From Rhizaria sp. SCN 62-66 (taxonomy: Eukaryota), in NCBI GenBank assembly GCA_001724265.1, contig MEDY01000205.1:62001-94294 (forward strand): DNA of 32,294 nucleotides. Reading direction: 5' to 3'. Positions 1 to 29,260 of the stretch are shown here, piece after piece. Within the stretch, counting starts at the first letter, position 1. Each line of letters begins with the position of its first letter. Below the pieces are notes generated by a model. That model worked only from the letters and a program-made list of their open reading frames with translations, had not been told where the DNA came from and made no database searches. The translations under genes and the position numbers were made by a program.

Positions 1-2662
1 CGCTTTTAACCGGAGAGCCGCAGACGCCCGCGGCGGCATTCGCCGCGGCGGAGCTGCAGCCAGCGCCGCGGAGCGCGGCCGCGATTGCAGCCGCAGCCTC
101 GGCGGGCGTGTCGTCGCAGTAGCGCGTGTGCGAGCGGCGGATGTACATCAGCATATACGCCCCGGTGCCGCTGCGCCTGTTGCCGCCGCCGCCGCCGCCG
201 CCGCCGCTGTGGAGCCCCCAGTCGTTGGCCACGCCGCCACAGGCCAGATCGCCGCCGGCGAGGGCGGTGGCGGCGGGCTTGAAGGCGTCTGTACCGAAGT
301 TTGCGTCCACGGCGTCGACTTCGGAGACTGGGGTGACGGAGTCGTCATCGAAGCGCCACCACTGGCTGCGGGTGTAAGCGGGACCGACGACCGGCACGGT
401 AGCGTCTGCGGGAACGTTATCATCAACATCGTCATCAGAGCCAGAGCTCAAGCCAGACGTTTCGCTCTTGTGTGAGTCGCTCATAGCAGTCTTCTTGTTG
501 CTGAGACGAGAGTCAGAGATGTTGTTGTTGATGGCCGCCGCAGCCGCAGCGGCAGCAGCAGCGGCGGCTGTCGCCTTGTCAGCGAGAGAGCTACTCGTGT
601 CCTTGTCCTTCTTCTTACTCCTGTCGCTGTTCGCATCAGAGTCGCTGCTGCCGTTGCCGCCGGCCTTGCGGAAGGGCGCGCGCGCAAGCTCCGCCGCAGA
701 GCGCACCGGCAAGATAGGTCGCACAAAGTTATAGTAGTGTCCGCCGTCAATGCCGCCAGAGTGTACTAGCACAGCGTGCAGATCGTACACGAGCGTCTCG
801 GGAGCGCGCGCGCCGTCAAACGGGTCTTCAGACACCCACACGTCCGATCCACTGGCGTTGGCGCCCTTCGGCCACGCAACAATCACCTCGTTGTCCTTGT
901 TATTGCCAGTCGCATCGGCGGCGGCGTTTGAGTTCGCCGCTGTGGGGGCAAGCGCAGGAGGCGCAGCGGGCGTCGCGGTGTTGCTGCTGCTGTTGCTGGT
1001 CGCCGCGGCATCGGCAGCGTGCAGCGTGCCAGTGAGCGTGGCCGCGTTCACGGTCACGGTTGTCGTCGCATACTTGAGCTTCTGCTGCCGCTCACGTTCA
1101 GCCCTCGCTTTCTCACCCGTGACGTCGTCATCGGCATGGGTGTCGCGCGCAGCTCCAGGCCCAGCAGCAGCAGCAGCCGCCGCAGCAGCAGCCTCGGCTG
1201 CAGCAACCGCGGCCTGCTCGGCGATCCTCGCCGCGGCGGCCGCGATAAGCGCTAATTCCTGCGACACAAACGGTGCGAGATCGATCGACGTGGGAAACTC
1301 GAACCGGTCGTTGACTTTTTCCATACTATCGCTCATCACATCATACTGGAAGCGTTTGAGCTGGACTTGCAGCACCGGTGGCAGCCGCAGCAGGCGCGCC
1401 GAGCGCCGCATGGCCTGACGGCCAAACTTCTCAGTCTTGATCATGTTGTCGCCGTCCATGACCTCCGCCGCGAGGTACGCCTGCAGAGACTCGGCCAGTC
1501 CACGGTGGCCGCGCACAGCGAGGCTCAGGTCGTAAAAGCGCTGAATGTGCATCGTCCGCAGCGGCACGTTGAGCGCCTCTGAGCAAGTAGCTTCTAAGCC
1601 GCAGAACAGGCGCGCAACGCAGCCCTCGACGACGGAGTCCTGGGTCACGTGTTCCAGCTTATCCAGCAGCAGCCGGGAGAACTCCTGAGCGTCGTGCTGC
1701 GTAAACGCCTCCGCCGTGCCCCAGCCGAACGCGCCGGTGAGTCCGACCGTGCTCGCAGCGGTGCCGGGCCGCGACTGCATCTGGTAGAAGAGCCGCTGCA
1801 TTTCGCGCGCGAACCCGCGGTCGCCCTCGGAAGCGGCGGGCACCGGCGGCAGCAGCGCTCGCAGACGCGCGCGCACGGCGGGCGAAGCACCGCGGACGGC
1901 GGCGTCGAGACGCGCGCGGAGACTGCCGCACGGGTCCGCGGCGCCCGTTTGCTGCGGGGCAAAGTAGACCATCTTGCGAAAGCGGGGGATGTGGAACAGC
2001 GCCTGCATGTAGCTGTTGAGGTAGCACGTCGCGCCCTGGTTGAACAGGCCCGCGAAGCCGCGCGCGCCCGCAGTGCCCGCGGCGAACGCGGTCGAGCGCC
2101 GGTGTGAGCGCCACTGGGCGAGCGCGGTCGCCACCGGCACGCGCGCCGCTGCGGCACGGTTGGCGAGGAATGAGCTCCGCAGCAACGCAGCGTCCTCGGC
2201 AGTCCCGGCGCGGTCGCGCGCGGCGGCAGCGACTCGGAGACAGGTGTTGCGGTACTTCTCGTGTTCAATACGCGCTTGCTTGACAGCCTCCTCGTACATG
2301 TCGTCTTCGATGTCCACGAAATCGCGGTAGCGCTCGACCGCAGCGGCAGTCAGCACGACGCGCAGCGAGAGCACCGGCACGCAGTCGGGCGACACGTCCG
2401 CCGGCCGCATCGGATCGTCCGCGCTGACGTTGCTGTAGCTGTTGTTACTGCTCCCAGAGGCCTTGTCTTTGTCCTCCTTGTGTGAGGCGTAGACGATCGA
2501 GGGGTGCGTTGACACAGGGTGGAACTGATCCGGGTGCGCGAAAGCTGTGGTGTAAGCCTTGGTGACAACCTCGGCGGCAGTCGAATCGAGCGCATGGAGC
2601 GGCACCCAGTGCAGAAACCGACGCATCGCGAAGACACGTAAGTGGGCATGCAAGCCTTGTGG
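1..2662 (-). CDS. USP7: Ubiquitin-specific protease (peptidase C19), USP7/Ubp15-like; exon 2 with the complete catalytic domain; 3' end lies outside the window
   Basis: Manual translation from the acceptor at 2662 gives the Cys box GFAGLFNQGATCYLNSYMQALF (Cys codon 2024-2026), QHDAQEFSRLLLDKLE, EVMDGDN, LPPVLQVQLKRFQYD..KVNDRFEFP, the His box YDLHAVLVHSGGIDGGHYYNFVRP (His 737-739), WWRFDDDSV and AYMLMYIRR. The frame stays open to base 1, which explains its absence from the ORF track. The symbol denotes family resemblance, not proven orthology. Confidence 0.92.
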
Positions 2663-2870
2663 CTGTGGATGTGAGAGAGAGCGCAAATAAATGGGGGAAA
2701 AGCAACAACAGGGAGCCAAAAAATGTGATGTGAGAGCGAGCGGCTCAAGAGAGAGGGGTTGAGGCCATATAAAGAGATTTAACGCAGAAGATATGTCGTG
2801 ATAGGACAGCAACAACAAAAATAAAACCACATGTTCGTCAGCGAAGTGCTGAGTTGCATACGAAACGTAC
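2663..2870 (-). other. Spliceosomal intron (208 nt, phase 0) in the USP gene
   Basis: Minus strand reads TCG|GTACGT...CTCTCTCTCACATCCACAG|CCA. It is T/C-rich, and splicing joins ORF 2838..5414 in frame to the USP catalytic exon. Confidence 0.88.
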
Positions 2871-5800
2871 CGATGAAGGACAGTTTTTGCCTTGAATAAG
2901 GAACACCGAGTCAATTTTGCTGGGTGGAACTGCCGAGCTTTGCAGCGTCTCTCGGGGGAAAGCTGGCGCCAAGCCCACAGACACAGGCATCAGCGGCGGC
3001 CCCCCGTCGCGCATCACATGCAGAAAGAACATCTCTCCGCCGATGTCCCAAAACAACCGCACGCGCACCTCCACGAACTCCGTGGTCATAAACCGCGACT
3101 GCTCGCCCAGCAGCAGCAGCCCGCGGCGCGGCGGAACTGCCCCGCGCGCGCCGCGGTGCTGATGCAGGATCGCGTCGCGCAGGTGCATCGGCAGCGGAAA
3201 GACGAGGCAGGCCGCGTCCACGGTGGAGTCGTCCTCCGGGTTCAGCCCAGGGGGAGCCGAGAGGGAGCCAGTGATGTAGGGACGGACGAAATCGAGCGAC
3301 AGTGTGGTTGGCACAGCGGCCACGGCAGCCGCGGCAGCCGCTTCGGGCGTGAGAAGAGCGTTGTCTGAGCCTTCGGCAGCGGTGTCTTTGCCCTCCTCGT
3401 CAGCGTCTCCAGCGGCGGCACTGGCAGAGTCTGGCCGGCCGGTGAGGTGGCGCATCTCGGCAGCGAACTCGGCCCTCGTGACGGCCGCGGGCGCGTAAGC
3501 CAGCGCGGTGCCCGCCGCGGCGTCGTCGTAGCCCTTGGGCACAACGTCGCGGTCGTACCAGTACTGCGAGTTGGAGCCGTCAGCTACGTCCGTCGGCAGC
3601 GGCGTCAGCGGCCGCGGGGCGCCCAGCTCGGTCAATCCGACAGCAGTCTGGCCGAGGCCACTGAGAGCGCCGCCGGCACGGAAACCAGCGCCAGTGCTGG
3701 GGGTGAGGCCGAAGGGCAGCGCTTGCACTGCGGCAAGCAACGGGGCTCCAGTCGGGAGGACACGGCCCGGCTGATTCGGCTGCGGCGGCGTCTGCTGCTG
3801 TTGCTGCTGCAATTGTTGCTGCAGTACTGGTTCTGAGAGCTCCACCGGAGGCGGCGGCAACAAGCCACAGAGGGGGGTGAGAAAAACATTATCCACGTCG
3901 TCAGCATGTGTGGTCACAGCTGGATTCTGAGGCTGGGGATGTGGCGGAGGTACTAGATTCCGCAAAGTATAATGCAAATTCTGATCATTCCTCTGCCGTT
4001 GCTGCAGTCTCTGTTGCTGCTGCTGTTCTTGTTGTTGTCGGTTAATGCCATTGACAAGATCAAACGGATCGTATTGATCCACACCAAGGGTGCCGTCGTC
4101 GATGTTGCCGTCGTCGTCCACGTCGTACTCGAGGTCCGCACTCGGCTGCTGCTGGTTGTTGCCATACATCGCGTCGCGCTCTTGCTGATGCTGTTGTTGC
4201 TGCTGCTGCAGACGCTGCTGCTGCTGCCGCTGCTGGCGCTGCTCTGGAGTCACTATAGAGCCGTTGGCCATCTGAGCCCAGCCCTTCGGGGCCGCCAGTA
4301 TCTGCTGAGATCCTGAGGCAGGCTCGAAGTTGTAGTCGTCATACGCCTCAACGCCACCGCCGTCGTCGTTGTTGTTATTGCTATGGGCGTCTCCTCCATC
4401 ATCCCGGTCCGCGTCGTCGTCGCCATAGAGCGCGCTTTGCCTGTTCAGTGTCTGTGCTTGCCCAATGCCGCCGTAAGCTTGAACAACGCTGTCACTCGGC
4501 GTCCGCGCACCGGTTTTGTTCGCAGCAGCAGCGGCGGCAGCAGCAGCAGCGGCGGCGGCAGCGGGAGAATGGGGCACTAGAGCAGCGGGAGCGGCGAGAC
4601 CCCCCTGGCGGTAGCTGCCCTCAGCCCAGAGCTGATGTGTCTTGGCGCTAGCGGCGCGGCGCTCATGCTCCTTCAGCAAGTGCAGCTGCTGCTGCTGCAT
4701 CTTCTGTTGCTTCTGTTGCGAACGCGCATCGGGGTGGCGGTCGCTGATCTGCACCTCAGAGCCGTCTCCCTCGTCATCAGCCACGTCGGCAGTCTTCGCA
4801 GCCTCAGCGTCAGCGTGAGGGTGAGGGTGAGAGTAGACTGCATCGTCCTCGTCGCCGTCATCGTCCCCAGAGAAGAGCGAGCGCGCTTTGTTGTTGCGAA
4901 CGTTTGTCTTGTTCGCACCGCCAGGGAGGTTCGGGTTAGCAGCAAGCTCAGCGTCAGACGCGCCCTCGCTCACGGTCTCCTCGTCTTCGCTTTCGCTGTC
5001 CATCTTGCTCTTGGCGCGCTTGTTCTGGACCGGCCGCACGGGAAGCGAGCTCATGAGGTCGTGGCGGCCCATGTCACTGACCAGGCTGCTGTATCCAGGT
5101 TTGCTCTGACTCGGAGGGCGCGGCTGCTGCGGCCGCTGCTGCGGAGGCGACAGCTCCCCTCCGTCAGCATCGGGCAAACGCTTCACCTGCTGTCCACCCC
5201 CGCTACCGCCGCCGCCGCTGCTGCTGACTGTAGGAGCACCGAGCCGCGATGACTTGGCGGCAGCGCTGTCACCGGGTGCGGCGGCCTTGCGGGGAATGCG
5301 ATAGGGAGGATTCGCACCGGCGTTTGCGGTGTTGTTAGTGCCTGCAATGCTGCCAGAAATGCTGTCACCAAAGTCGCTCAACTTGTTGTTGTTTTGCTGC
5401 GCTTGCTTCATCAACTGCTGCTGTCGACTCTGTGTACTTTGCTCCAGATGCTTCTTCTGAAACAGCTAATACGCCGCTTTCTGCGAACGTAATTCCTCCT
5501 CAGTATGCCCGGAAGTCGCGTCGCCCAACCCGGAAGTCAAGCCGCTTCCGGAGGCCGTGGCGACGGCGATGGCACCGCGCGAGGGCGGAGGCACCGGCCG
5601 CGGCAGACTGCCCGGCTGTGTCAGCTTATTGTAGAGCTGCTGCTGTTGCTGTTGTTGTTGTTGTTGGCTGACTCTGCTGCTCTCGGGGCTCGCGCGCGCG
5701 CTGCCAGCCTTACTACCGACGCTCCAAGCAGGCGCAAGTCCCGAGCCGCCGGAGCTGTAACCGGTACTGCCAGCACCGCGAGAGCCGCTCGCAGCGGCGC

Positions 5801-6455
5801 TTAAGCTTGTCGTAGTGGGGGCGCTGGGACCGGTGGAGCCGCGGCTGGATGCAGGAGCGGGCGCGACAGCGGGCGCGGGCGCGCGCGGGGGCGTTGGCGC
5901 GGCGGGCGCAGGCGCAGGCGTCTTAGTCATGATGTCAAACATCGTCTCGGCGTCGTTGAGGTCGAAAGGGACACTGGCAGTGTCACCGGCGGCTGTGGAG
6001 TTACGGTTACTCACCTTGCCAATATTATCGGGCGCGGTGGGAGTGCGGAAAGCGCTGACAACGTGTTTGCTGTGCTCGCGGGCGTCGAAGCGAGCAGCAG
6101 CGCTCGCGTCAGCGCCAGCGCCAGTGCCTGTGGTTGTAGCGCCTGTCGCAGCCTCAGTGGTTGCAGTGGGGGTGCGCTTCTTGGCCCTGCTGGTGCTGCT
6201 GCTGTCACCTTGATCCTCTTCGTCTGTGAACGTGTCGAGGGAGTAGGTGCTGGCAATGCGGGGCGCGGGCGCGGCCGCGGGGGCTGCAGCGGCAGCGCCG
6301 TGGCTGTGGCGCGCGTCTCTGTTCGCAGTGTTGTTGTTGTTGATAGTGTCTTCATTGTCACTGTCGTCGCTGAGGTAAATGCCGTCCGATGTGTTGTTGT
6401 AGAGCACGCTTTTACCCGCGGCGCCGTGGGGACGGTGCGGAGGGTGGCCGCTCAT
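2871..6455 (-). CDS. Exon 1 of the USP7-like gene: long low-complexity N-terminal region (Gln/Ala/Asp/Asn-rich), with one in-frame TAG at 5466-5468
   Basis: ORFs 5466..6455 and 2838..5414 share a frame and are joined by TAG plus 17 sense codons (…SQKAAY*LFQKKHLEQSTQSRQQQLMKQAQQ…). ATG 6455 follows a pyrimidine-rich leader with upstream in-frame stops. The last ~130 codons look globular, possibly a degenerate MATH/TRAF region (unproven). Confidence 0.7.
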
Positions 6456-7226
6456 CGTGCGGAAGGGGTGCAGCCGCGACGAGAGAGCAGGGAAGTGAAC
6501 GAACGAGAGAGTGGGCGCGAAGCCTGGGTGTTGATTGCGCGGGAACGAGTCTAGACTTGGACAAGACTGTGTGACCTGGCGTTAGACTGAAATGGTCTAA
6601 ATATGAAACCAACAGGTAGATAGTTAGTGTTTCTGTGAGTTCGGAGTGTGATCAATGAAACACCAAGTGTTTCTATCCTACGGGAGGATGCGTGGGGGTG
6701 ATCGGGATGGGAAATGAGAGGCTCGGTTCAGGGAATGTGAAGATCTCACTCGACAGGGCAATAATAGTTGCGGCTGCAGAAAATGAATATGCACTAAAAA
6801 GAAGTAGTCGAATTAATTTAGTAGGTGCATAAGAAGTAAAAATAAACGATTGTAGGACTCACAATCTTCCTGCAAAATTGAGATCTGCCTGGCGGGAGCT
6901 AAGCCAGAGTGGGTGGAACTGTCAGGCACGAAGAGCGTTTGTGGTGAAACTGTTACAGAGGATATCTCTTGGCAGAAGAACGTCTGGAGCTTATTACAAG
7001 TGTCATGTCTGTATTGTTTTCTTGTTTTAATTATGTAAAGCTTATAAAATCAGGTGTCTGCACACGCATACTGCTGTCGAGACGTCCTGGTGATCACGCA
7101 AAGAGCAGAGCCCCAAACCAACAAATGGTTGCTCACTGTTATTTTGTTATATTTCTTGTTGTTGTTTCTGTTGCTTCTACAGCGACGACATATGCACCGC
7201 AACCCGGTGTCACGCGCACGGCACGC

Positions 7227-7685
7227 TTACTTGTGAGTGGCAGTGACGATAGCGTCGACGAAGTCGCTCTTCTCGAGGCAGCCCGTGGTGTTGACGCCCT
7301 GGAGCTTGGCCTGCTCCTTAAGTACCGAGACCGCAAGCTCAGCAATCGCCTCGCGGGTCATGTTTGCGAAGTCGAGCTTCTTAGGCGCGTTGGCCTTAAT
7401 GAGCGCGCGCTCAAAGCCGTCGTCGGCAGGGTGGCCGGAGAAGACGACCTTCTTGTCGACGATGACGAAGGCGTGGGGGATGCCCTGAACGCTGTACTCG
7501 TCGCTGTACTCGGCCAAGTCGCCGGAGAGGACGTTGTAGCACATGTCAATCTTCTTGATAAAGGGCTCAATGCGCGAGACGGGCTCGTTAGAGACGCCGA
7601 TGAACTTGACGTTGGTGTACTTGCGCGAGAGCTCCGAGAGGTGGGGGATCATGCGCACGCAAGGAGGGCACCACGTGGCCCACAT
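7227..7685 (-). CDS. TlpA/ResA-like thioredoxin-fold disulfide reductase, exon 2, with a C-terminal SAP/ARMET_C-like helical module
   Basis: WATWCPPC active site, IPHLSEL..KY, FIGVSNE and cis-Pro motif VQGIPHAFVI. C-terminus LAVSVLKEQAKLQGVNTTGCLEKSDFVDAI. Stop is TAA at 7227-7229. Confidence 0.93.
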   Translation of the reverse strand: MWATWCPPCVRMIPHLSELSRKYTNVKFIGVSNEPVSRIEPFIKKIDMCYNVLSGDLAEYSDEYSVQGIPHAFVIVDKKVVFSGHPADDGFERALIKANAPKKLDFANMTREAIAELAVSVLKEQAKLQGVNTTGCLEKSDFVDAIVTATHK

Positions 7686-7854
7686 CTAAAGGCGAGATTT
7701 GACAGTAGTAGACAAACAATGGAAGAATTGTGTTAGTTTCTGTGTAGGTATCAATTTCGTCTTTGTGGGAGTGTTACTGATTTTGCGTTAGAGTGAGATG
7801 AAGAGGACAAAAATTGGGTTAGAAAGAGCATGTAAGGCAAAGATACGAGCTTAC
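7686..7854 (-). other. Spliceosomal intron (169 nt, phase 0) in the thioredoxin gene
   Basis: GAG|GTAAGC donor, ACTAAC branch-like motif and CCTTTAG|ATG acceptor. Splicing yields …YVVE-MWATWCPPC, matching the family pattern VVEFWATWC. Confidence 0.92.
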
Positions 7855-7953
7855 CTCAACAACGTAGGCGTTGCCATCGAGGACGTCGTAGGTGGAGCCC
7901 TGAATGACCTTAGCGCTGGAAGGAATAGCAAAGGCAGTGCCGCTGGTAGCCAT
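7855..7953 (-). CDS. Thioredoxin-like gene exon 1 (33 codons: MATSGTAFAIPSSAKVIQGSTYDVLDGNAYVVE)
   Basis: ATG at 7953 in AAGATGG context; the 99-nt open frame ends at a GTAAGC donor and supplies the beta-strand preceding the CxxC motif. Spliced protein is 185 aa. Confidence 0.88.
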
Positions 7954-9428
7954 CTTGGGAAAGTGGGGGAACTGCGACGAGAGGTAGAAGGCAAGAGAAA
8001 GAGCGACGACGCAGAAGATCGGGAAGGCTGTGAGAACTGGGCGGATCTGAAGCGGTCAGATCATGCACAAAAGCGACGCAAAACGCGTGCAAGTATTTAA
8101 ACAAAAAATAAAAGAAAACAAAAAACTCAATCATCAACTTACAGCTCGTTGCACGAGCTGGAAGTACGATTGTTTAAGTTTTCCATAACGATCAAGGTCT
8201 GCTGTTTCGGTCGCTCGAGTCGACTCAAGCTTGGGCGGCGTGCTCGCTCTGACCACAAATGCATTTCGAAAATTGGTTCGTGGTGTGAACGATAAATCTG
8301 CGATTTAACGCGAATTACATTCTTTGATCGTGCATATTTTTTTATTTTCACGTTGAAACAACTTATACATACTCAGAAAAATTGTTATTTCTTGGATTTA
8401 ATTCCGATTTATGGCGTTATATCTTCCGGAATGTTGGCTTTTGCTTTGTTCGCATATGCTCAACGTTTTTCGCAGATGAAGTCATGCAAATTAATGGTAT
8501 AGCCAAATGTGCGTATTGCACAGCATTATTGAGATCTAGCTAGTTGTAGAAACGCTCCGTCTGCGACAGTTGCTTACACATGCATATGTTGCCTTTTTAT
8601 CAAGTCTTTAATCTGGCACATGATTTCACTTCAAGTGAGGTTCTCGCTCTATCCAGCAAAGAGTGCCCGTTAGCCGTAGAAACATGATTAAAACGCATAA
8701 AGTGCTATGTAATTGATAATGATCTCACGTTGATTTTAGTGCAGTCGAAGAGAACCGTGTTCAAAGCTTCCTTTGTAATCCTGAACGTAGCATTTGTCCT
8801 AAACCCTTTAATTAACGCACGTGAAAAGTGAGCCCATGATAAGATAAAACAACTATCATGTTGAAGCTGCATTGTTGTGTGCTATATTTGATTTTTAGGC
8901 GTGTTCTCAAGCTTGAAGACTCGCATATCCCGGGAGAAGTGTTTTTTTGCGCCGCTTGTGCTCACAGCGCGTGGCGAAAGCAAGGGGGTGGTGGTGGCAG
9001 CAAGTGCAGTTTGTTGGCTCAAATCTTCGACTTCTAAATCGGCGGCCTTCCGTCGTGAAATTGCATCATCGATACTGTTTCCGGGCTTTTATGGCTGTTT
9101 GTTTTATAATCACTTTTAACTTTCGCGAAATGTCGTTTAACTGTGCTTAGCCTGGCCGACTCAACTCGAAACGTTTCATTGGTATCATCCGGCCCTCTTC
9201 TTCACCACTTCTCCCCACGCCCACGCGTTATGCCCTCCTTCATTCGCGCTCAAACCCGCGCACGTAGACACGTTACGTGGTCTAAATTAGTGATAGTTTG
9301 CATCTAAGGCTCTTGCGCGCCTTTGCCCCTCTCAACCGCTCTCTGTTCTCCTGAACAGAGTGTTCTGCCACAACTTCCACAGTCTCGCTTCCGCTTCGCT
9401 GTGCGCGTGTCAGTCGTCATCACCGCGC
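7954..9428. promoter_or_regulatory. Divergent intergenic region (5' UTRs and promoters of the thioredoxin and myotubularin genes)
   Basis: AT-rich, no convincing ORF, and flanked by head-to-head start codons with pyrimidine-rich leaders on the respective sense strands. Confidence 0.55.
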
Positions 9429-11286
9429 ATGTCTTCTCTTCCCGCGCCACCGCCGGCCCTCGCGCCGCTGCTGTGGCCGCGCGAGACTGTTCTGCTGACG
9501 GCCGGTCCAGTTCTGCTGCCTTTTCACCCCCTGCGTCCTCCATACAACACTGACAACACGTACACCAACAACGCGCATCGCTACGCCGATGCCAACGCCT
9601 CCGCCGTCGCTGCTATCAACGCTGGTGGCAACATCAATGCTGCTGATATGTCGCAGCTGTTGCCGGAAGGCATTGCTGTGCTGAGTGCTGATGTTTTACC
9701 ACCGCAGACACTGCTAAAGCCTTCCCCGTTGGCTGGCTCCGCCTCCGCCCCCGCGTCTCTAACTGCGAACTCTGACACAGCTACTACTGCTGCTGCCGCT
9801 GCGTCGAGTGAGTTTTCCGCGGTGAGTCGAGTGCGCACTGCTGTGGCAGCCGCTGCGGCCGCAGCCGCCGCCGCTGCCGCCGAGCCAGAGTCAGTTTCGG
9901 CCGCTCCAGCGGAGTCTGCATCCACTGCAACTGAGGCGGGGCCGGTCGCCAAGACAAACTCCACTGAGTCTGCGTCTGCGTCTCCGCGTCAGAGTCTGAT
10001 GCCGCCACACCGGGCTGCCGTGACGGCCTCAGCCAGTGCGCCTGGCCCTGGCCGCCACAACGCCAGTCGCAACAACAACAACAGCAGCAGCAATGACTGT
10101 GCTGGCCGCGACAGTGACAGGAATTGCGTGCCACATGCCGTCGGGTCGCTCGTTCTGACGACATTCCGCCTCCTCGTCGTCGGCCTCAACAGCTCCGCAA
10201 CTGCCCCTAGCGCCTGCACTTCAAGTACCAGTGCCAGGACCAACGCCAGCGCCGGTGACTGCGAGACGCCAGAGCCAGTGGTAGAGCCAGAGTCAGGGTC
10301 AGATGCGCGTGCACGTGTGTTGTTTAGCGTGCCTCTGAGCGGACTGGCCACTGTGGACTCGATTACGCTTCCCTCGCTTGCACTCGCACTCAACACTCCT
10401 AGCGCTGGCTGCGACAGTCACTGCAAAACTCAGTCTCAAGCTCAAGCTCAAGCCCAGTCGCAGTCTCAGGGACTGGGGTTGTTGTGTCTCGGCATGCGGT
10501 CACCGCACGCTTGGCAGCAGCCGCACGCGCACACTGCCATTGCCGCGACAAACACAGGCTGCGCGCACCGTGACGCCAACAACACAGCCGCAAGCACAAG
10601 TTGTGACGGCAGTGCTCAGAATACATGTCGTAACTCGAGCGCGTTCGAGAAGGCTGTGAAGGCGGGCAACACAGCCCGTGCCCGCGCGCTGCTCGCTCTT
10701 GCCTTCACTCTGGCTCCTGCTGCCGCTGCCGCAGCACTCGCTGGTGCCGCTGGAGTCGATGGAGCGACGAGGCTTGACTTTGAGCAGAGGCGGCTTAACT
10801 TGCGCGCGCTGCCGCCTCGCGTGGCTGCAGATGTGCTGCTTTCGTTCCCAACTCTCCTCCCGCTTTTTTGCGAACCCTCGCCATCGCGGGTCTCGAGTAA
10901 TAACACAAGCCTGAGCACAAACGCCTGCATGACTGCGCCTGCAGCTGTAGCGGAGGCGAAGAGTGCTACCGAGACAGAGACAGAGACAGAGACTGCCAAC
11001 TCCGGTGTCATAGTTACCCTAGAGGAAAAAGCCAAGGCAGAGGCTGAGGCTAAGGCTGAAGCTGAGGCTAAGGCTGAAGCTGATGCGACGGCCGCCGCCG
11101 CTGTTGCCGCCGCTGCTGCCGCCGTATGTACCAGCGCTGCAGTGGCGAATGCATTGCGCACGCCGGCCCTCTGGAGCGAAGGCTGTGGCACGGTCGTTCT
11201 GGCCTTTGTACCGCCGCCATCGCACAGTGTAAACCCCAACCCCAACGCCAGCGCCAGTGCCGGCGGTAATGCTGCTCACGGTCACC

Positions 11287-11332
<46 letters not shown>

Positions 11333-14300
11333 TAGTCAGGCGTTTGTGGTTGCGTCTGCTGCCGCGATCGCGATCGCCACCGGCAACGCTGTCAAGACCA
11401 ACAGCTGTTCCGACACTGACAATGTCACTGCCACTGGCACTGGCGCGGGCGCGGGCGCGGGTCATGTGACTGTACCTGACCCTGCGACTGTGGCCGCCGC
11501 CGGTGCCGCTGTCCGCGCTGCCTGGCCCGCTTTCGCTCTCAGTACCCCCTTACCCGCGCATCTAAGTACCCCGGCGGCGAGTCTAAGTGCCTCGATGACC
11601 GCGCTTGTGGCCGCGGTGGAAGCAGCCGCGTTTGTTGGACCCGCGGCTCGGCTAAACCGTGCGGTTGCCCTTGGCCCCACCACATTGCTACAACAGCAAC
11701 ACACGGTTCACCGCAATATGACGAAGACTGAAACAGAGTCGAAGTCTCGCTGTGACGGTTGGGAGCTTGCCGAGACTGAAACTGACCTCTCTCAAGTCGG
11801 CTTTGGTGCATACTTTAACTACACCACCGCAAGCACAAACAAGAATGATAGTGATCACCGTAATGATAGCGCTGTGAACGACGATAGCTGTTCTGCGTTG
11901 CTTGAGAGCCACGCCCGCGCAGTACGCCGTCGCATCGCGGATACTATCACACTGGCGCCCGTCAACTCCAACCACGGACTGTGCTCCTCGTACCCGTCTT
12001 TGCTCCCGCTGCCGCGCAAAGCCACCTCCGCAGCGCCCGCTGACGCAGCCACAGCGCCCCCTGACATCGCGAGCGCTAATGCGCAAACCGCATCTGACGC
12101 TACCAGCTCTAGCGCTGGCACTGGCACTGGCTCTGGCACTGGCACTAGTTTTAGCGCTGGCTCCGGTACTATGAGCGCTGGCGCTGGTTTGCTGGCTGCT
12201 GCGGCAAAGTTCCGCGCCCGTGGCCGCCTACCAGTCGCCGTGTGGGCGCACCCACTGACCGGCGCGGTGCTACTGCGCGCCAGCCAGCCGCTGGCGGGGC
12301 TGGTGGGGCGCCGCTGCGAGGCCGATGAGGCGCTCGTCTCTCTCGCCGCGCAGGCCGCTGTTACGCACTGCGCGAACAGCAATAATAACAGCAATAATAA
12401 CAATAGTAATTGCTGTAAGCAAGCTAGTGCGAAGTGTGATAGGGATGATCAGCTGTTAGTTGCCACCGGTGTTGCAGGAATTGTTTCCCTCGCACACAAC
12501 AAGCAGCAGCAACAACAGCCACAACAGCATAACTCGAGTTCTGGTCCTGGCGCTCCTCCTTCTGCGACTCCTTCGCGTGCTACTGCTGCGCGTGCTCCTG
12601 CCGTCACGGCAGCGGCAGCGGCGTCGCAGCTCCCCCGCGTCGCGATCATAGACTGCCGGCCGTGGACTGCCGCTTTGGCCAACGCTCTCGTCGGCCGCGG
12701 CTACGAAACAGCGCGCAACTACGGCCCCTTTAGTGCGCATTGTGGCGTTGCATTCATGGACATTGGCAACATCCACGCGATGCGCAACGCATTCGACGCG
12801 GCAGCAGCGGAAACCACTGCGCCGGTGCTCTGCGGCTACGGTCTTTGCAACAACAGCACTTACCACAATAACGATAGTGACGTTTTGCGTGTTTCTGTTT
12901 CCGGCACCCCGTGTCCTTCGCTCTCGCTGCGGGCCTCGGCCCATCCGGCGTTGCTGCAATGGCTCGCGCACTGCCGCGCAGTCCTGGCCGCGGCCGCCGC
13001 CGCCGCGTCCCGCTTAGCGGACGACGGCGCTACGGTGCTCGCCCACTGCAGCGACAACTTCGACCGCACGACGCAGCTCTGCGTGCTGGCCCCGCTGCTG
13101 CTGGAGCCGCGCTACCGCACTTTCACCGGCTTCGCTGCACTGGTGGAGCGCGAAGTCGTGGCCGCGGGCCACTGCACCGCGTCGCGCGGCGCTGTTGCAG
13201 TCGGCAGGCGCAGGGGCGGCAATTTAAACATCGCTGGCAGCAACAGGAACGGCACCATTAATGGCTATGGCATTGGCTATGGGAACGGCTGCAGCTCTGA
13301 GAGTAAGTTCGATATCACAGTGAGCGTAGGTGGCAAAGGCCATCGCAATAACAACAACAACAATGACTGCAGTGTCAAGGCTGACAATGCTGCTAACGCT
13401 AGCGCAAGCTCTTGTGCGGAGGCTAACAGTGAAAACACTCAGTTTAGCCTAGCTGTCAATGGTGCCAACGCACACAGTGAAGAGCGTAAGCAGACATCCA
13501 GTCCTTCGCAGCCAGACTCCCGCCCTCGGTCAAACGACAGCGACGGTCCGAGTAGAACTGTGAACGCAGACACAAAGAGCAGCGTCTCTGGTGCTAGGGC
13601 TGGGTCCGGTCAAGTTCCCAGTCCAGTGCCGAGCCCTTCGTCGGCGGCCTCGACGCTTTTCTCATACGTCTCCGCCGCCGCCGCCGCAGCCGCCTCCTCT
13701 TGGTTCGCCGCGCCTGACAACAACAGCAACAACAGCTCTAGTGCAAGCTCAAACTCTAACTGCGGCTCCAATAGTTCGTCCTCTTTGGATAGTACGAATA
13801 TGGTTGATTTGCGTTCTCGCTTTGTCCCCCTCGCCCGCGCCGAGGCCCTCACAGTGCACGCCTCCCACTCCAGCTCGCGGTCACCCATCCTGCTCCAGCT
13901 GCTCGACTGTGTCCACCAGCTCGCAGTCGCGTTCCCCGCGGCGTTTGAGTTCACGCCTCTCTGGCTAGCCCGCATCGCCGCCGCGGCCACGGCAGACCCG
14001 GCGGGCGGCGCGGGCGGCACGTTTGCCTGCGACGCGCACGCGGCGACTCTGGCGCTCAGGAGCGCTGTGACAGGCGAGTTGCTCCCGCCGCCACTCGCCA
14101 CGTCTGCCTCCGACTCTCCCGCCAACGACAATCACATCGGCAACAACAATAACAGGGACAGCAGCGGCGGCGGTAGCGGCAACGGCGGCGGCGATATCGG
14201 CAAGGCTTGCAACAGTGTCTGCAGCGACGACGACGGCAGCGCGACTGAGGCTGCTCGGATGGGCCCCGCGACCGCCGCGCATCCGCTGGGGCCGTCCCCA

Positions 14301-15776
14301 GCGCCCCCAGCAGGGCGGCGCCCACCGACGACTTCAGTCCGCGCCGGCACCGACTCAGCCTGGCTGCGCCTGCTCCACTGCCCCGCCGCGCGCGCCGAGT
14401 GCCGGAACCCGCGCTACGAGTTGCCGCGGCCCGGGGCGCTGGGGGCGGCGCGCGCGCGGCTGGTGCTGCCGGCGGCGCTGACTGGCGCGCCGCACTTGGC
14501 GCACAGTCACACGCAGGGGCAGGGGCACGCACACGGTCACTTTTCTCACGGTCACTCCGCTGCCCACGGCCACTCCGCTGCTCACGGTCACTCTGCGAAT
14601 AATGGCACTGACACTGGCGCTGGCGCTGGGGCTGGCACTGGCGCTGGGGCTGCGGCGGTGAGTGAGAGTAAGAGCAATGGTGCGGAATGCGACTGCACAA
14701 GCAGTAGCTGTAGCAGCAGCGTTACTGTCAATCCCAATGTCGCAGCGAATGCCGTCGATGCGTCTGCTGTTGATAAAGCGTCTCACGAAAGCAGCGACAC
14801 TGAGAGTCACAGTCAGACTGACTACCACAGTCTCGGTTTCGATGAAGTCGGGGTGAACGACGGTCTGGCTGTCTGGGGTGAAGTATTCCTGTCGCACTTA
14901 CTTCCAGAGAGTACTCACGCGCAGTCTAAGGGTCATTGCGTGAGTACTTACACCGAGTGCAGGTGTGGCGGTGCAAGCATGCACGGTCTTGGCTGGGGCA
15001 ACCAACTCGATCACCCTAGTCCTGTTCTTGATCACATTAACAATCACTATATCACTCACAACAACAACGACACGAGCGTTAATAATGTTAATGCAAACAC
15101 AAACGAGAATAAGCAGGTCGCAACCGGTGCAAGTGATCCGAATGGCAGTAATCGTGATGGTATGGCGCAATATCAATACCAGTACCAATATCGCCCCCTG
15201 ACCCAGTCAAAACAGTCGCATCCTCTGGCACCCGCTCGGAATCACTGCAACGCATCTAAGTGTGGCTCTAAAGGGTCATCTAAGGGGTCGAATGGTGCGC
15301 TGACACTCTTTTCAGTCCCTCGTCATCACATCACTGCAAACTCAACCCCGCACATCGACAGCTGCGACAGCTATAACGGCAGTTGCACTGTGAGTGCAAA
15401 TGCGAATGCGAAGACTGAAGCTGCGGTCAGGGCTGCTGTTGCAGCGCGTCAAAAGCGTCGTGTTCCTGCAAACCCGCGCCGTGCGAAACCTGACTGCTGC
15501 GACGCAGCTGCTGCCGCTGCTGAGGCTGAGGCTGAGGAGGCTGAGGCTGAGGCTGAGGAGGCTGCGGCTGAGGCTGAGGAGGCTGAGAATGATAGTGACG
15601 GTGCACTGGGTTGGAGCGGACTGTTGCGCGGTATCGTGTCCTTGCCGATGCAGGTGTACGGCATTGCTGCCTCTGCACTTGTGCCTCCGATGACAACCAC
15701 AACTACGAGCACAACAGCAACAACAACGACTCAGGTCGCAACGAAAGCGACAACGTCCGAAGAAGCGAACGAGTAA
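9429..15776 (+). CDS. Myotubularin-family phosphoinositide 3-phosphatase (~2115 aa) with extensive low-complexity insertions
   Basis: First in-frame ATG at 9429. PH-GRAM-like fragments (LLWPRETVLL, GSLVLTTFRLL, SVPLSGLATVD) precede DGW, NSNHGLCSSYPSLL, AAKFRARGRLPVAVW, LLRASQPLAGL..RRCEADE, IIDCRP..ALAN…GYE, FMDIGNIHAMRNAF, VLAHCSDNFDRTTQLC, EPRYRTFTGF..LVERE and SPILLQLLDCVHQL…FPAAFEF. Stop is TAA. Confidence 0.93.
14547..14597 (+). repeat. 18-bp coding tandem repeat (about 3 copies) encoding HGHSAA
   Basis: CACGGTCACTCCGCTGCC / CACGGCCACTCCGCTGCT / CACGGTCACTCTGCG. Confidence 0.85.
15519..15587 (+). repeat. Coding (GCTGAG)n-type microsatellite encoding an Ala-Glu tract
   Basis: Repeated GCTGAG/GAG units translate as AEAEAEEAEAEAEEAAAEAEEAE. 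A similar AEAKAE tract lies at about 11030-11082. Confidence 0.8.
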
Positions 15777-16690
15777 TATCGCTTGGGACTTGAAATAACC
15801 TTAAATATCAAATGGCATTAACGATTTGAATGTGATTCTATATATAACCGAAACAATTGTTACAATAAACCGAACTTTTTTTATAGCCCACGCAAGGATC
15901 AGCAGAGATCGCTTGCATTTGACGAATGCACGCATGAGGCGTGTGGCAGTGGGTGGGGTGGCTGGTGGTTCGCAAAAATTTGGGGCTGGGCTGGAAAGTT
16001 GATTTTTGTCAAGTTTGGGATATGACGAGCTCTGTGAGACTGTCCTGGTCGTGGTTTGTAATTTAATGAGCATCGAACGCGCAACAGTACTCGAACGCCG
16101 CGAATCTCTTGTTTGTGGCTCGCTGCGTTGCATCGGCCCATGTGAATTCGACCCACAAAGCGAAGTCTCTTGGCAATCCGACGAAGGGCAGGGCCGCTCT
16201 AGCTTCCCTACGCGACGCCCCCCTGGCCACCGCAGTGGGTTCTAACCCTCCGATTTAAACTCCGGTGCTGCTCGTTGTGCTTTTGTTGCGCATGGCCGTG
16301 CTAGAGCTTTGTAGCTGCCTACTCTGCTGTATAAAGTCGCTTTGGTAGCAGACAAGCGAGATACCCTTCACCTGTGTGGACCACCACAGGCTCGCGCCGG
16401 CCTTTGAAATGCCGTCTCCAGCCGTGCGTGTCGCCGTTGTTTACTCTTTTCCACCCTGTTCTAGCTTACGTTATTGTATTTCGTTTTCATTTTATGCGCT
16501 TTTCCTCTCCCACTCTTTAGTCTTCTCAGGAACCAGGCTCCGAAAGCCCCACCTCCCTTCCTTCACTCTTTCTCTCCGCTTTGCTTTGCTGGTCACACCA
16601 GCAGCCGTCCCTCGTCACCTCGCGCTCCGCCGACGCTCTCTCTCTCCGTCTGCCCCGCGCTCCGACGCGTGCGCCTTCTCTTCTCCCCAC

Positions 16691-16765
16691 ATGAGCTCTA
16701 CCTCTCAGGGCCAAGGCTCGGGCGGTGGTGGCCTCAACCCTCGAGGCAGCCACAACAACAACGCT

Positions 16766-16798
<33 letters not shown>

Positions 16799-19700
16799 GC
16801 GCTTGAAGTCGCCGGCTTCGGCAACTCCGACCTTTTCCCGTCCCCTGACTCTCCCTCATCCGCCGACCTCGCCGCCGCCGCCGCCTTCGCGCGCCACAGC
16901 GGCGGCTCCCGCGCCTCGATCATGCCCGTCGCCCGCACTGCGATGCGCTTCCCCGCGCCCGGGGTCTCCGTCGCCGCGCTGAACGCCTACGCCGCCGCCA
17001 CGGCCGCGGGGCCCTCGGTCGCCCCCGCGTTGTCCACGTCTGCTTCTGCCGCCGCCGCATCCGCTAGCACTGCTGCAACAACGTCCTCATCCTCATCGTC
17101 GTCCTCTACTGCGAAAGTGGTGAGTTCTAGCGGCACCAACCCCGCCTCGACCTCTGGCGCCGCCGGGCTCGCACCCCTGGTCACGCGCCCGGGCCTCCGC
17201 CCCCGCAAAACCGCCGCCCGCGCCACCGACCCGTCATCATCCTCCTCTCACTCTGCTGGCTCTGGCGCTGGCTCTGCGACGAGCGGTCTACAGCCGGGCA
17301 AAGGCCCCGGGTTCGCGTCCTACAACTCCATCTCCGGTCGCAAGTGCCTCGTTGCCGGTTGCAAAGACATGCGTCTCGCCCGCGGCTACTGCAATAAGCA
17401 CCAGCGTCTCCTCGGCCGCGCGGGCCCCTCGGCCTCAGACTCCGACTCCGACCCCGCCTCGGCAGCCGCCGCCTCCTCGGCCTCCCAGTCCGCCCCCGGC
17501 GGCAGCGCCGGCGGCGCGAGCGGCGGGCCCGGCGGCGCGAGCGGCGGCCCCTCGCTCTCTCTGACCGCGACCACCGCGCACGACCTCACTGCGCCGTCTT
17601 TGTCTGCGCTCGACACGCTGCTCTCGGCCCACCCGCTCTCGTCAGCGAGCCCTTATGTGCTCTCCCTCTGGGGCGCGGTCCGGGCCCTGGCGGCTCAGGT
17701 CACCGCCGCCACGGGCAAGCCCGTCGCCATCTGCTCCGCCACGGCCACTGCCGCGGCTGAGCCTGCCTCCGCCGCTCCTTCTTCTTCTGCCGCCGCCGCT
17801 GCTGCAGCTGCTTCAGTGTCTTCAGGAGCGAACTCCGTCGCCGGCGCTGGTCACAAGGCGCTGCCGCCGCCGCTGTCTCTGCACCGCGACATCTTCGCCC
17901 TGTCGGAGACGCTGCCTCTGGCGCACGCCGTGCTGGCTGCCGCCGCCGCCGCCGCCGCCGTGGCCGCGACCTCGTCCTCCTCCGCTGCCGCCCCGTCTGC
18001 CAGCGGGCCTGCCAGCGGTGGCCACGCCTACGCCTACGCCACCACGTCCGCCGCCGCCGTGGCCAACGCGGGCATCACCGCCGTCGCGCCCTCCGCGGCC
18101 GCGCTCGCCGCCGCCACCGCCGCGCACAACGCGCTGTCGCCCGAGTCCCGTAGCTTGGCGGCGGCCGCGCATGAGCCTGACGCGATGTCGCCGCTGCCGG
18201 CCCCCGCGCTGGCGCCGCCGCTGAACAGCGTGAGCGCCACGACGTCGAGCTCTCGCAACGGCGGCGGCAGCACTGGCAGTGGCAACGGCTCTGGCAGCTG
18301 CGGCAACGCGGCGACGCAGAGTGGGTTGGTGGCATTGGGGCCTGCCGCGGCCGTCGGTGCGCGCGCCAATGCAACTCTTGCTCTCTTCAACAACAACAAT
18401 AGCGGTGATAATAACAATAACAGCAATCACGCTGCCGTGTACACTCCGCGGACTCCCTCGGCGCGCGTGGCCCTGCCGAGCTACTCGGTGCCGCCGCCGT
18501 GCGCGCGCGAGCCCATCGTCGACGTGCAGGTCGTCACTGCCGCCGCCCGCAAGACGCCGCCCACGGGCTACACCGTGGTGACCAAGACTGTGGGCGGCCG
18601 CTCGGCGGACCTCAACCCGCAAGGGCGCAGCATGTTCCTGGCCTACCGCCGACGTCCCGTCCCCCCCGCGGCCGCAGCCGCTGCTGCCGCCGCCGCCGCT
18701 GCTGCTACTGCCGCTGCTGCGAACAACAACTGCGGCGGCAGCGGCAGCAGAGCTGTGAGCATGAGCGACAGTGCGGCTTCGTCGTCCAACGCCCCGCTGG
18801 GCCCCGCCCTCGCGCCGCAACAGGTGGCGTACTATAATGGCAACAACGCCGTCACCAGCTCAAACTCAAGCTCCAGCGCCAGCTCTTCTGCCTCCGCCGC
18901 TGCTGCCAATGGCGGCTACGACGCCTCCGCCGCGAGCACCGACTACACGCAGAGTCTCAGCATGAACAACTCCGCCTCGCTGGCGGCCGCAGCAGCCGCG
19001 GCCGCGGCGGCGGCGAGCGCTGAGCCCGTCACCCTGCGGCCTCTGACCGCGCTGTCAGTGCTCTTCGCCGAGGCCGGCGAAGAGCCCCCGCTGGGCTTCG
19101 AGCTCATCGCGCGCACGCTGCCGTCCAACCCCGCCGGCACCGGCGCCGGCGGCTCCTCCGCGTCGTCCTCGGCGGCCGCCGCTGCCGCCGCGGCCAACGC
19201 CGCCGACTCCGTGCCGCTGCCGGCGAACCTCAACTTGGGCACGCCCTCGCCGCGGTGCGTGTTCCTCGCGGCCCACCGCGCCGCCGCCGCCCTCGATACC
19301 ACCCACCTCACAGCCAGCGATGTGGCGTCCTACTGCGGGCCCGCCGCCGCCGCCGCGCTCGCCGCCACGCACGTCTTCGCCAACGCCGTCGCCGCGGGCA
19401 AGCCGCCGGTGGCGGCCGCGGCGGCCGCGGCGGCAGTCGGACCGGTGTTGTCGGCGCGCGCGGCCGCGCAGATCGAGACTATTCTGTCGTTCGGGTACGG
19501 GTTCGGGCCCGGCGCGGCCGTTTTCTCAGAGGCGGCGCTCTTAGGCGTCGGCCCTAGCTCGAGCGCGAGTGCGAGTCTCGCGGCTGCCTTCGCTACCGCC
19601 CCCGCCGCCGGCCCTTCCACCGGCGGCTCCAGCACGGCTGCTGCGACTGCCGCGGTGTCATTTGCGCAACAGACGGCGACCGAGGCGATGGCTTTTTTCG

Positions 19701-28700: not shown

Positions 28701-29116
28701 GAGAGTTCGGCGGCGAGGTCGCGCTTGTCCTGGCCGTCCCGCCCGGTCTCGCCGGCGCCGGGCCCGGGGGCGCGGCGGGCGGCGCGGGGCTCGGCTTCGC
28801 GGGGCCGCTGCTGGGCGCGAACGGCGCGCTCCAGGTGCGCGGCAGCCTCTCGGGCGCCTCCGAGGCCGACCGCCACACGACCGCGCTCGTCACGGCCGCC
28901 GCGGCCGCTGCGGGCGTCGGCGGCATCGCGGGCGGCATTGGCGCCGGCAGCGCTCTGTCCGGGTCCGCGCTGGGCGCCGCGGGGGCCGCCGCGGGCAGCG
29001 TCGTCGGCGCGGTCGCGGGCGAGGCGGCGGGCGGGCCCGCGGCCGGGGGTGCCAGCCGCTCCCTGATCAAGGCCGGGCAGCTCGTCAAGATCGCTTCCTC
29101 CACGGGCAAGCACCAG
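16691..29116 (+). CDS. Large Sec7-domain Arf guanine-nucleotide exchange factor (BIG/GBF-like core), exon 1 (12.4 kb)
   Basis: ATG at 16691 follows a pyrimidine-rich leader. It contains a CX4CX9CX2H motif (17345-17401), three MABP-like repeats (about 18509-20056) and a HUS-like region (about 24090-24470, …LLSLYAAYDV). The Sec7 domain (about 26110-26790) shows LDKSLIGDFI, FDFTGMRFDAALRLFL, FRMPGEGQKIDR (Glu finger 26393-26395) and FALIMLNTD. HDS1-like MWETVW and the PH start RSLIKAGQLVK follow. Confidence 0.92.
16766..16795 (+). repeat. (CAG)10 polyglutamine microsatellite
   Basis: Ten perfect CAG units; another CAA(CAG)9 tract lies at 27509-27538. Confidence 0.9.
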
Positions 29117-29260
29117 GTACGCATCTTACATATTACATATTCCACCATATATCTCGCAATTCTATAAAAATCGAAAATATTGTTTGTTTACATTATTTTC
29201 AATCTACTTTATCTCACTTTACTTTTTCGTCTGCCTCCTTTGTTTTGTTCGTATCTATAG
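29117..29260 (+). other. Spliceosomal intron (144 nt, phase 0) within the PH domain of the GEF
   Basis: CAG|GTACGC…TTTGTTTTGTTCGTATCTATAG|GAG; AT-rich with an in-frame stop. Splicing gives KIASSTGKHQ-EYAFFLLSDLLLYA, a contiguous PH strand pattern. Confidence 0.93.

Follow-up and report, generated by a model that had tools for sequence, protein, structure and literature searches.

A single in-frame UAG interrupts a putative USP7-like deubiquitinase gene of an uncultured wastewater eukaryote

What does one stop codon signify when the sequence on either side of it reads as the same protein? We address this question for a 32,294-nucleotide (nt) stretch of contig MEDY01000205.1 (positions 62,001 to 94,294; hereafter the window), whose minus strand carries a gene for a putative ubiquitin-specific protease (USP) of the USP7 type that is broken once, by an in-frame TAG. 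The part upstream of the TAG is referred to as open reading frame (ORF) A and the part downstream, up to a predicted splice donor, as ORF B (Table 1). An earlier note, made from the letters of the window, had put forward stop-codon reassignment, readthrough or mRNA editing, with a base-call error, a nonsense allele and initiation at a downstream ATG as caveats. DNA of the window occurs in bioreactor, wastewater and microbial-fuel-cell metagenomes (13 rows from six studies, 2015-2025), four of these rows carrying at least half of the sampled words. Its owner would be an uncultured eukaryote of wastewater and bioreactor communities, rich in G+C (GC) and with an otherwise apparently standard genetic code. 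The reading that we favour, and that may well be correct, is a premature UAG fixed in this lineage under the standard code, lying in a dispensable-looking, non-folded N-terminal arm, with minor routes as the only source of the enzyme.

One coding frame broken by one TAG

The minus-strand letters quoted in the earlier note (...CAG AAA GCG GCG TAT TAG CTG TTT CAG AAG AAG CAT CTG GAG...TTG ATG...) were present exactly as given, with the TAG at 5468-5466. Translation of 6455-2838 on the minus strand yielded one frame of about 1,200 codons with this TAG as its single internal stop, so that the 329-amino-acid (aa) and 858-aa ORFs are, as had been claimed, the two sides of one frame. The 329-aa ORF occupies 5466..6455 from its ATG (5466..6581 from stop to stop) and the 858-aa ORF occupies 2838..5414 (2838..5465 from stop to stop). 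At a GC of ~0.65, where ~0.025 stops per codon are expected, the chance of 329 open codons upstream of the TAG is ~2e-4, and the upstream frame is therefore not open by chance. The TAG is a genuine interruption of the coding frame.

Codon usage gave the same picture on both sides of the stop. Using a codon table built from ~7,600 codons of the other exons, the log-likelihood per codon was highest in frame 0 for ORF A (-3.82, versus -4.30 and -4.49 in the other frames), for ORF B (-3.95, versus -4.31 and -4.61) and for the catalytic exon (-3.77, versus -4.32 and -4.49). Frame 0 was also the best frame in each 60-codon segment spanning the TAG.

The TAG was read as Gln for a structure prediction of the fragment 5651-5259, made with AlphaFold2 on the single sequence, in which it is residue 62. 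A helix was predicted for residues 51-104, with means of the predicted local distance difference test (pLDDT) of 91-95 over 10-residue blocks for residues 51-90. When ORF A was predicted alone, its mean pLDDT was 46.7 and the helix was reduced to a 7-residue stub (residues 319-325; block means ~55). Since long charged helices are easily predicted, this is moderate evidence, and at that strength a helix running across the TAG suggests that the stop cuts a once-continuous coding sequence rather than parting two genes. Together with the codon scores it bears out the claim that both sides are coding in one frame.

The TAG in three haplotypes and in RNA

Positions 2400-8200 of the window were compared with contigs of four public runs (X3, X4, X5 and X8). 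Contig data drop rare variants, so minor forms, or the presence of all parts on one molecule, are not visible in them. In X3 (DNA, from a study other than the likely source of the window), a 994-letter contig (record 5) covers 4672-5629 with no differences, at uniform depth and with no break at the TAG. X4 is also DNA, because its contigs cover introns; its bin 5310-5503 is fully covered at a contig depth of 5.5, and the sole difference listed there is 5492 A>T, a Leu>Ile change in the ORF A frame. Eleven other differences in ORF B and one 3-nt deletion at 4685, the only indel found among the haplotypes, identify X4 as another haplotype. In X5, a 362-letter contig (record 19) covers 5304-5629 with no differences at a depth of 7.18, and differences of its own at 4445, 4455 and 5803 point to a third haplotype. 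Divergence among these haplotypes, of which there are at least three, is about 0.3-0.6% over the low-complexity portion of the gene.

X5 carries the automatic label 'RNA? (probably DNA)'. We read it as complementary DNA (cDNA) for the present organism because it contains a joint 7685>7855, at a depth of 36.3, that skips 169 nt with GT..AG on the minus strand and coincides exactly with the intron of the neighbouring thioredoxin-like gene, and because the depth in the bins around that intron is what the exon parts alone would yield. The poly(A) metatranscriptome X8 covers 6119-6451, 6438-6635 and 4688-4893 as well as a thioredoxin exon, with zero depth in intron and intergenic bins, and is without cover at 5310-5697, the TAG site included. 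An X5 contig over 5768-6377 likewise covers ORF A, and transcription as seen in the RNA contigs spans ORF A and its leader to at least 6698. At consensus level, and from the single X5 contig over 5304-5629, the TAG is present in RNA, unspliced and unedited.

No sense codon was found at the site in X3, X4 or X5. The agreement of three assemblies from different studies refutes a CAG>TAG base-call error, which the earlier note had kept open.

Where the gene consists of CAG/GCN repeats (3758-4339 and 5116-5309), depth rises to hundreds or thousands in all four runs. Many joints there are false, stemming from low-complexity sequence of unrelated organisms; the joints and an A>G at 3812 are to be ignored.

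The catalytic part and its homologues

No Pfam family was found in ORF A or in the 858-aa ORF. It is a third ORF (2..2989), in another frame, that holds the catalytic (UCH) domain (PF00443, E 6.7e-42). The earlier claim of an intact catalytic domain stands as regards the aligned Cys, His and Asp boxes, with the correction that the domain is in neither the 329-aa nor the 858-aa ORF. The intron at 2870-2663 that would join ORF B to this exon is putative, since no RNA contig spans the junction.

The catalytic core is 43% identical to that of protein P0016, with NQGATCYLNS, HSGGIDGGHYY and WWRFDDD aligned (Cys box, His box and FDD motif). P0016 and P0017, the best hits, have the full USP7 architecture (MATH_2, UCH, USP7_ICP0_bdg and USP7_C2), and on this comparison of sequences 'USP7-like deubiquitinase' is a reasonable name for the gene. 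It shares with USP7/HAUSP the UCH catalytic domain and its Cys, His and Asp boxes. Unlike USP7/HAUSP, it has ~1,200 low-complexity residues before the folded part, large insertions in the catalytic domain and no MATH domain found by Pfam. In the 250 residues before the intron and the 200 after it, no Pfam family appeared at E up to 5; a MATH domain at this place would be split by the intron. The C-terminal domains of such a protease would fall outside the window, which the gene leaves at base 2.

Best matches to the UCH domain are scattered (Pyropia, Vitrella, Ascobolus and Scytosiphon) at 27-43% identity. Queried with the UCH exon, metagenome contigs gave three loci at 22-28% identity, too distant for use; viral contigs and contigs of prokaryote genomes gave no related locus. 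A search of protein representatives with 718 residues (TAG read as Gln) gave one match, P0022 (E 1.9e-4), which spans the TAG and was rejected as a low-complexity match because its composition-adjusted BLASTP E value is 2.7.

A proposed tolerated premature stop

Under the reading that we favour, ribosomes would start from AUG 6455, the first of the transcribed region, and presumably terminate at the UAG after 329 codons. No ATG occurs upstream of ORF A in 6700-6456, so scanning ribosomes should start there. The released product would be without a predicted fold and end 11 residues into the former 54-residue helix. Two minor routes to the enzyme may be envisaged: basal near-cognate readthrough of a comparatively weak UAG-C stop, and initiation at AUG 5411, through shorter transcripts or inefficient reinitiation. 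Reinitiation is unlikely here because the upstream ORF is 329 codons long. The allele would then be a hypomorph that is tolerated, or would code for a form shortened at its N terminus, with no recoding system involved. Two caveats of the earlier note, a nonsense allele and a start at AUG 5411, are thereby retained as the simplest account, ahead of the decoding of UAG as Gln or its use as a switch, which the note favoured.

In a sequence so rich in Gln (CAG 258, CAA 69), CAG>TAG is the commonest one-step change that creates a stop, and a TAG is therefore what a random nonsense mutation would be expected to produce. The affected part is dispensable-looking: ORF A has no Pfam family and a low pLDDT (46.7), and 10 of the 15 strain differences, all in low-complexity sequence, are non-synonymous, although these differences have no power to tell selection from neutrality. 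In these respects the locus resembles natural nonsense alleles and young unitary pseudogenes affected in the N-terminal part and rescued by a downstream AUG: the gene is intact but for one premature stop, which is placed in a dispensable-looking region, is soon followed by an in-frame AUG and is of the kind that mutation most easily provides. It differs from them in that the TAG is common to three haplotypes of different studies and years and that no further decay has followed in at least 1,752 downstream codons.

Several points weigh against this reading. By the rules of scanning, a 329-codon upstream ORF at the first AUG should nearly abolish synthesis of the downstream enzyme, and with AUG 6455 as the first AUG, strict termination implies a near loss of enzyme from this mRNA. 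The stretch downstream of the TAG (865 + 887 codons) nevertheless contains no second stop or frameshift, and intact codons with intact catalytic motifs are the pattern that selection for expression would give. All three runs with cover, X3, X4 and X5, come from different studies, represent three haplotypes and carry the TAG. AUG 5411 has T at -3, where three of the four other start codons in the window have a purine. None of the three complete genes has TAG as its terminator, all of them ending in TAA. Finally, a protein search with ORFs A and B read through with X gave no hits, and so no orthologue of the N-terminal region. The divergence of about 0.3-0.6% is too small to test selection on the downstream part or to exclude a recent event.

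If the stop is an ordinary one, the locus amounts to a natural nonsense variant, well documented and confined to a dispensable portion of its gene, and serves chiefly as a caution in gene calling on contigs from eukaryotic metagenomes.

Possible readthrough of the UAG

The main rival, itself rather unlikely, is functional readthrough, by which one mRNA would serve for two products. These would be the short 329-aa protein and, made at a set rate, the complete USP7-like enzyme (more than 2,080 aa), in an ORF1-stop-ORF2 arrangement that may be likened to that of Drosophila kelch or of viral replicases. Decoding of the UAG at a useful rate is a tentative possibility; the N-terminal helix would then be completed only when the stop is read through, and the locus might be either a gene with two products in the manner of kelch or the earliest sign that UAG is ceasing to act as a stop in the lineage. 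Consistent with this, the coding signal carries on past the TAG without a change of frame, one confidently predicted helix spans it, and three haplotypes keep the TAG while the downstream ORF and the catalytic motifs are intact. A C comes after this UAG; the three true terminators, by contrast, are UAA, with U, A or G as the next base. A leader without AUG before ORF A leaves no obvious other route to the enzyme.

Known leaky stop contexts include UAG-CARYYA and UGA-CUAG. UAG CUG UUU shares only the +4 C with these motifs, and no stimulatory RNA structure was found in the 141 nt from the TAG onwards, which fold with a z score of 0.14 (115 of 200 shuffles fold equally well) and are thus not unusually structured. 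The search for orthologues also provided none in which conservation of the stop could be seen, and a recent nonsense change would look the same.

The kelch stop is UGA, and its readthrough has protein-level and cross-species evidence. In kelch-type readthrough (10.1101/2020.06.22.165522; PMC3840789), the arrangement is likewise ORF1-stop-ORF2, with one transcript, an in-frame stop before a long second ORF that holds further domains, and a coding signal that continues. The present UAG differs in having no known leaky motif or structure. If it is read through, the gene would add a rare cellular example from outside the insects to the long genes of ORF1-stop-ORF2 layout, with synthesis of the enzyme itself dependent on recoding, and an uncultured wastewater eukaryote would be flagged for possibly weakened UAG termination.

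Two cistrons without recoding, an improbable alternative

That the enzyme is made from AUG 5411 or a later AUG by way of an internal promoter, the shared frame being partly a coincidence, is improbable. An in-frame ATG does lie 19 codons past the TAG with no other ATG between, a shared frame with 18 open codons would arise by chance about one time in five, and local GC dips to 0.45-0.52 over 5500-5321. However, other spacers between genes in the window are AT-rich and 630-1,300 nt long, as opposed to 55 nt here; the predicted helix crosses the TAG; an RNA contig bridges the site; ORF A has no fold, family or homologue; and AUG 5411 has T at -3. The idea that transcripts start downstream of 5466 fails for at least part of the RNA, as poly(A) contigs cover 6119-6635.

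Possible removal or repair of the stop in RNA

Quite improbable, too, is removal of the stop from RNA, either as an exitron (for example from GTATTA at 5472 to AG at 5362 or 5350) or by conditional A-to-I editing of UAG to UGG. Over the TAG there are 98 frame-preserving GT..AG pairs of 30-400 nt. Those with the lowest GC (0.46; 111 and 123 nt, from the GTATTA donor at 5472) match a real intron in GC, but they are purine-rich and without a pyrimidine tract, and frame 0 is still the best-scoring frame there. None of the 98 has both a GTRNGY donor and a YAG acceptor; the real introns in the window, three in number, have the donors GTACGT, GTAAGC and GTACGC. Two micro-introns around the TAG were considered and rejected, one of 16 nt (5472-5457, GT..AG) that shifts the frame into a TGA within 14 codons and a frame-preserving one of 36 nt without intron features. 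The earlier statement that no AT-rich intron covers the codon holds, in that no credible intron exists among the 98 pairs.

Regarding editing, the A of the UAG is preceded by U and is predicted to lie in a hairpin loop, a setting like that reported for editing in ascomycetes (PMC7306014). In the minimum free energy fold, the 6-nt loop GUAUUA, which holds the UA of the UAG, is closed by a weak stem of 5 bp, two of which are G-U. Filamentous ascomycetes correct premature stops by A-to-I mRNA editing (PMC7306014; PMC10776026), mostly at sites in hairpin loops (PMC7306014). The likeness consists of a UAG in an otherwise complete gene, a U before the A and an A predicted to lie in a small hairpin loop. 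The differences are that the RNA contig here is unedited, that the organism is not recognisably an ascomycete and that editing in those fungi is specific to the sexual stage. The gene has no close ascomycete homologues, its best matches being 27-43% identical. No G replaces the A of the UAG in the X5 contig over 5304-5629, a consensus from one sample with a depth of 7.2. Neither a spliced-out segment nor A>G editing over 5466-5468, both of which the earlier note had named as outcomes to look for, appears in this one RNA contig over the site; minor forms are invisible in contigs.

Two further splice-like features of the gene were noted. A 22-nt stretch within ORF A (5995-6016, minus strand) is bounded by what look like perfect splice sites (AAG|GTGAGT...CCACAG); 22 is not divisible by three, the X5 contig over 5983-6196 retains the stretch, and it is probably due to chance. 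Farther 5' than the RNA contigs reach, the leader of the USP gene may hold an intron at ~6774-6862 (minus strand), seen by eye: GATT|GTGAGTCC ... TTTTCTGCAG|CCGC.

UAG as a possible sense codon

Very improbable is a sense or dual meaning of UAG, that is, a UAG-only change of the nuclear code such as that of the rhizarian exLh (Leu) or of Iotanema spirale (Gln). UAG is the only stop found in frame, the organism belongs to an unsampled lineage, and the three complete genes end in UAA, which matches the terminator bias reported for exLh and Iotanema in PMC5304391. These genes are the myotubularin-like (TAA at 15774-15776) and Sec7-family (30632-30634) genes on the plus strand and the thioredoxin-like gene (7227-7229) on the minus strand. 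Three terminators are too few to infer avoidance of TAG, and they are a weak hint.

In the exons of the four genes of the window, about 9,100 codons in all, this TAG is the only one in frame, in agreement with the earlier estimate of a sole TAG in roughly 9,000, and there is no in-frame TGA or TAA apart from two terminators in the same count. At synonymous first codon positions, T or A stands in place of C at a ratio of ~0.27-0.32 (CTG/TTG 286/78; CGG/AGG 84/27). Were TAG an equilibrated Gln codon alongside CAG (258) and CAA (69), ~70 TAGs would be expected (TTG/CTG 0.27 x 258 CAG). Because 1 was observed versus ~70 expected, a long-standing, genome-wide reassignment is very unlikely, as judged from codon counts.

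Comparison with the known cases points the same way. PMC5304391 lists 384 in-frame UAGs in 71 genes for exLh and 204 in 126 genes for Iotanema, an average of 1.6 to 5.4 per gene, whereas here there is one in four genes; the likeness lies in UAG alone being in frame and in the terminators seen being UAA. Scans of the window returned no tRNA gene and no Rfam RNA family. Reassignment as a genome-wide code, which the earlier note had raised, is thus a poor fit. In the literature we found no relevant account of stop reassignment in wastewater eukaryotes or of a USP7 with an in-frame stop.

The three TAA terminators occur despite a GC of 60-74% in coding sequence, and no TAG or TGA terminator is seen in the window.

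An artefact, or a sense allele hidden in a heterozygote, is hardly credible: the evidence is from contigs throughout, at depths of 5-7 and with rare variants dropped, but three assemblies from three studies agree, no other letter appears at 5466-5468 at a 5% threshold, and the X3 contig over 4672-5629 is of uniform depth and unbroken at the TAG.

Features of the locus and neighbouring genes

The window is rich in GC, with 0.60-0.74 inside genes and 0.40-0.52 in the spacers, and its genes are eukaryotic, with AT-rich GT-AG introns. In the 5' untranslated region of the USP gene (6456..6698), GC drops to about 0.5. Features of the gene are collected in Table 1.

Table 1. Features of the putative USP7-like gene, in positions of the window
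Feature	Position	Strand	Basis or remark
5' untranslated region, as far as RNA contigs extend	6456..6698	-	X8 record 31, 6438-6635; X5 record 23, 6509-6698
ORF A, 329 codons, low-complexity, no predicted fold	5469..6455	-	Starts at first AUG of transcribed region
Predicted 54-residue helix, from 11 residues before TAG to 42 beyond	5340..5501	-	AlphaFold2, window 5259-5651 (-), TAG read as Gln
In-frame TAG (UAG), followed by C (UAG CUG UUU)	5466..5468	-	Direct read; unchanged in X3, X4 and X5 contigs
ORF B, 865 codons, in ORF A frame, mostly low-complexity, ends at putative splice donor	2871..5465	-	Frame 0 best
First in-frame ATG past TAG, codon 19 after TAG	5409..5411	-	Context cagcagttgATGaag; T at -3
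Putative phase-0 intron, 208 nt, GTACGT...CACAG, GC 0.45	2663..2870	-	GT-AG; joins ORF B to UCH exon
Exon with ubiquitin-specific protease (UCH) catalytic domain, extends beyond window	2..2662	-	PF00443

Three other genes share the window. The thioredoxin-like gene (7227-7953, minus strand) has a WCPPC motif and a 169-nt intron (7854-7686) confirmed by the X5 joint. On the plus strand, a single-exon gene at 9429-15776 encodes a myotubularin-like phosphatase of ~2,100 aa (PF06602, E 1.3e-64) with large domain insertions. A giant two-exon gene (16409-29116 and 29261-30634, plus strand; ~4,700 aa) is heavily padded with low-complexity sequence and combines, unusually, HUS and Sec7 domains of the BIG/GBF type with PH and FYVE domains past its intron (29117-29260, plus strand; 144 nt, GC 0.29). 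A search of the Atlas with the Sec7 domain returned generic eukaryote clusters only.

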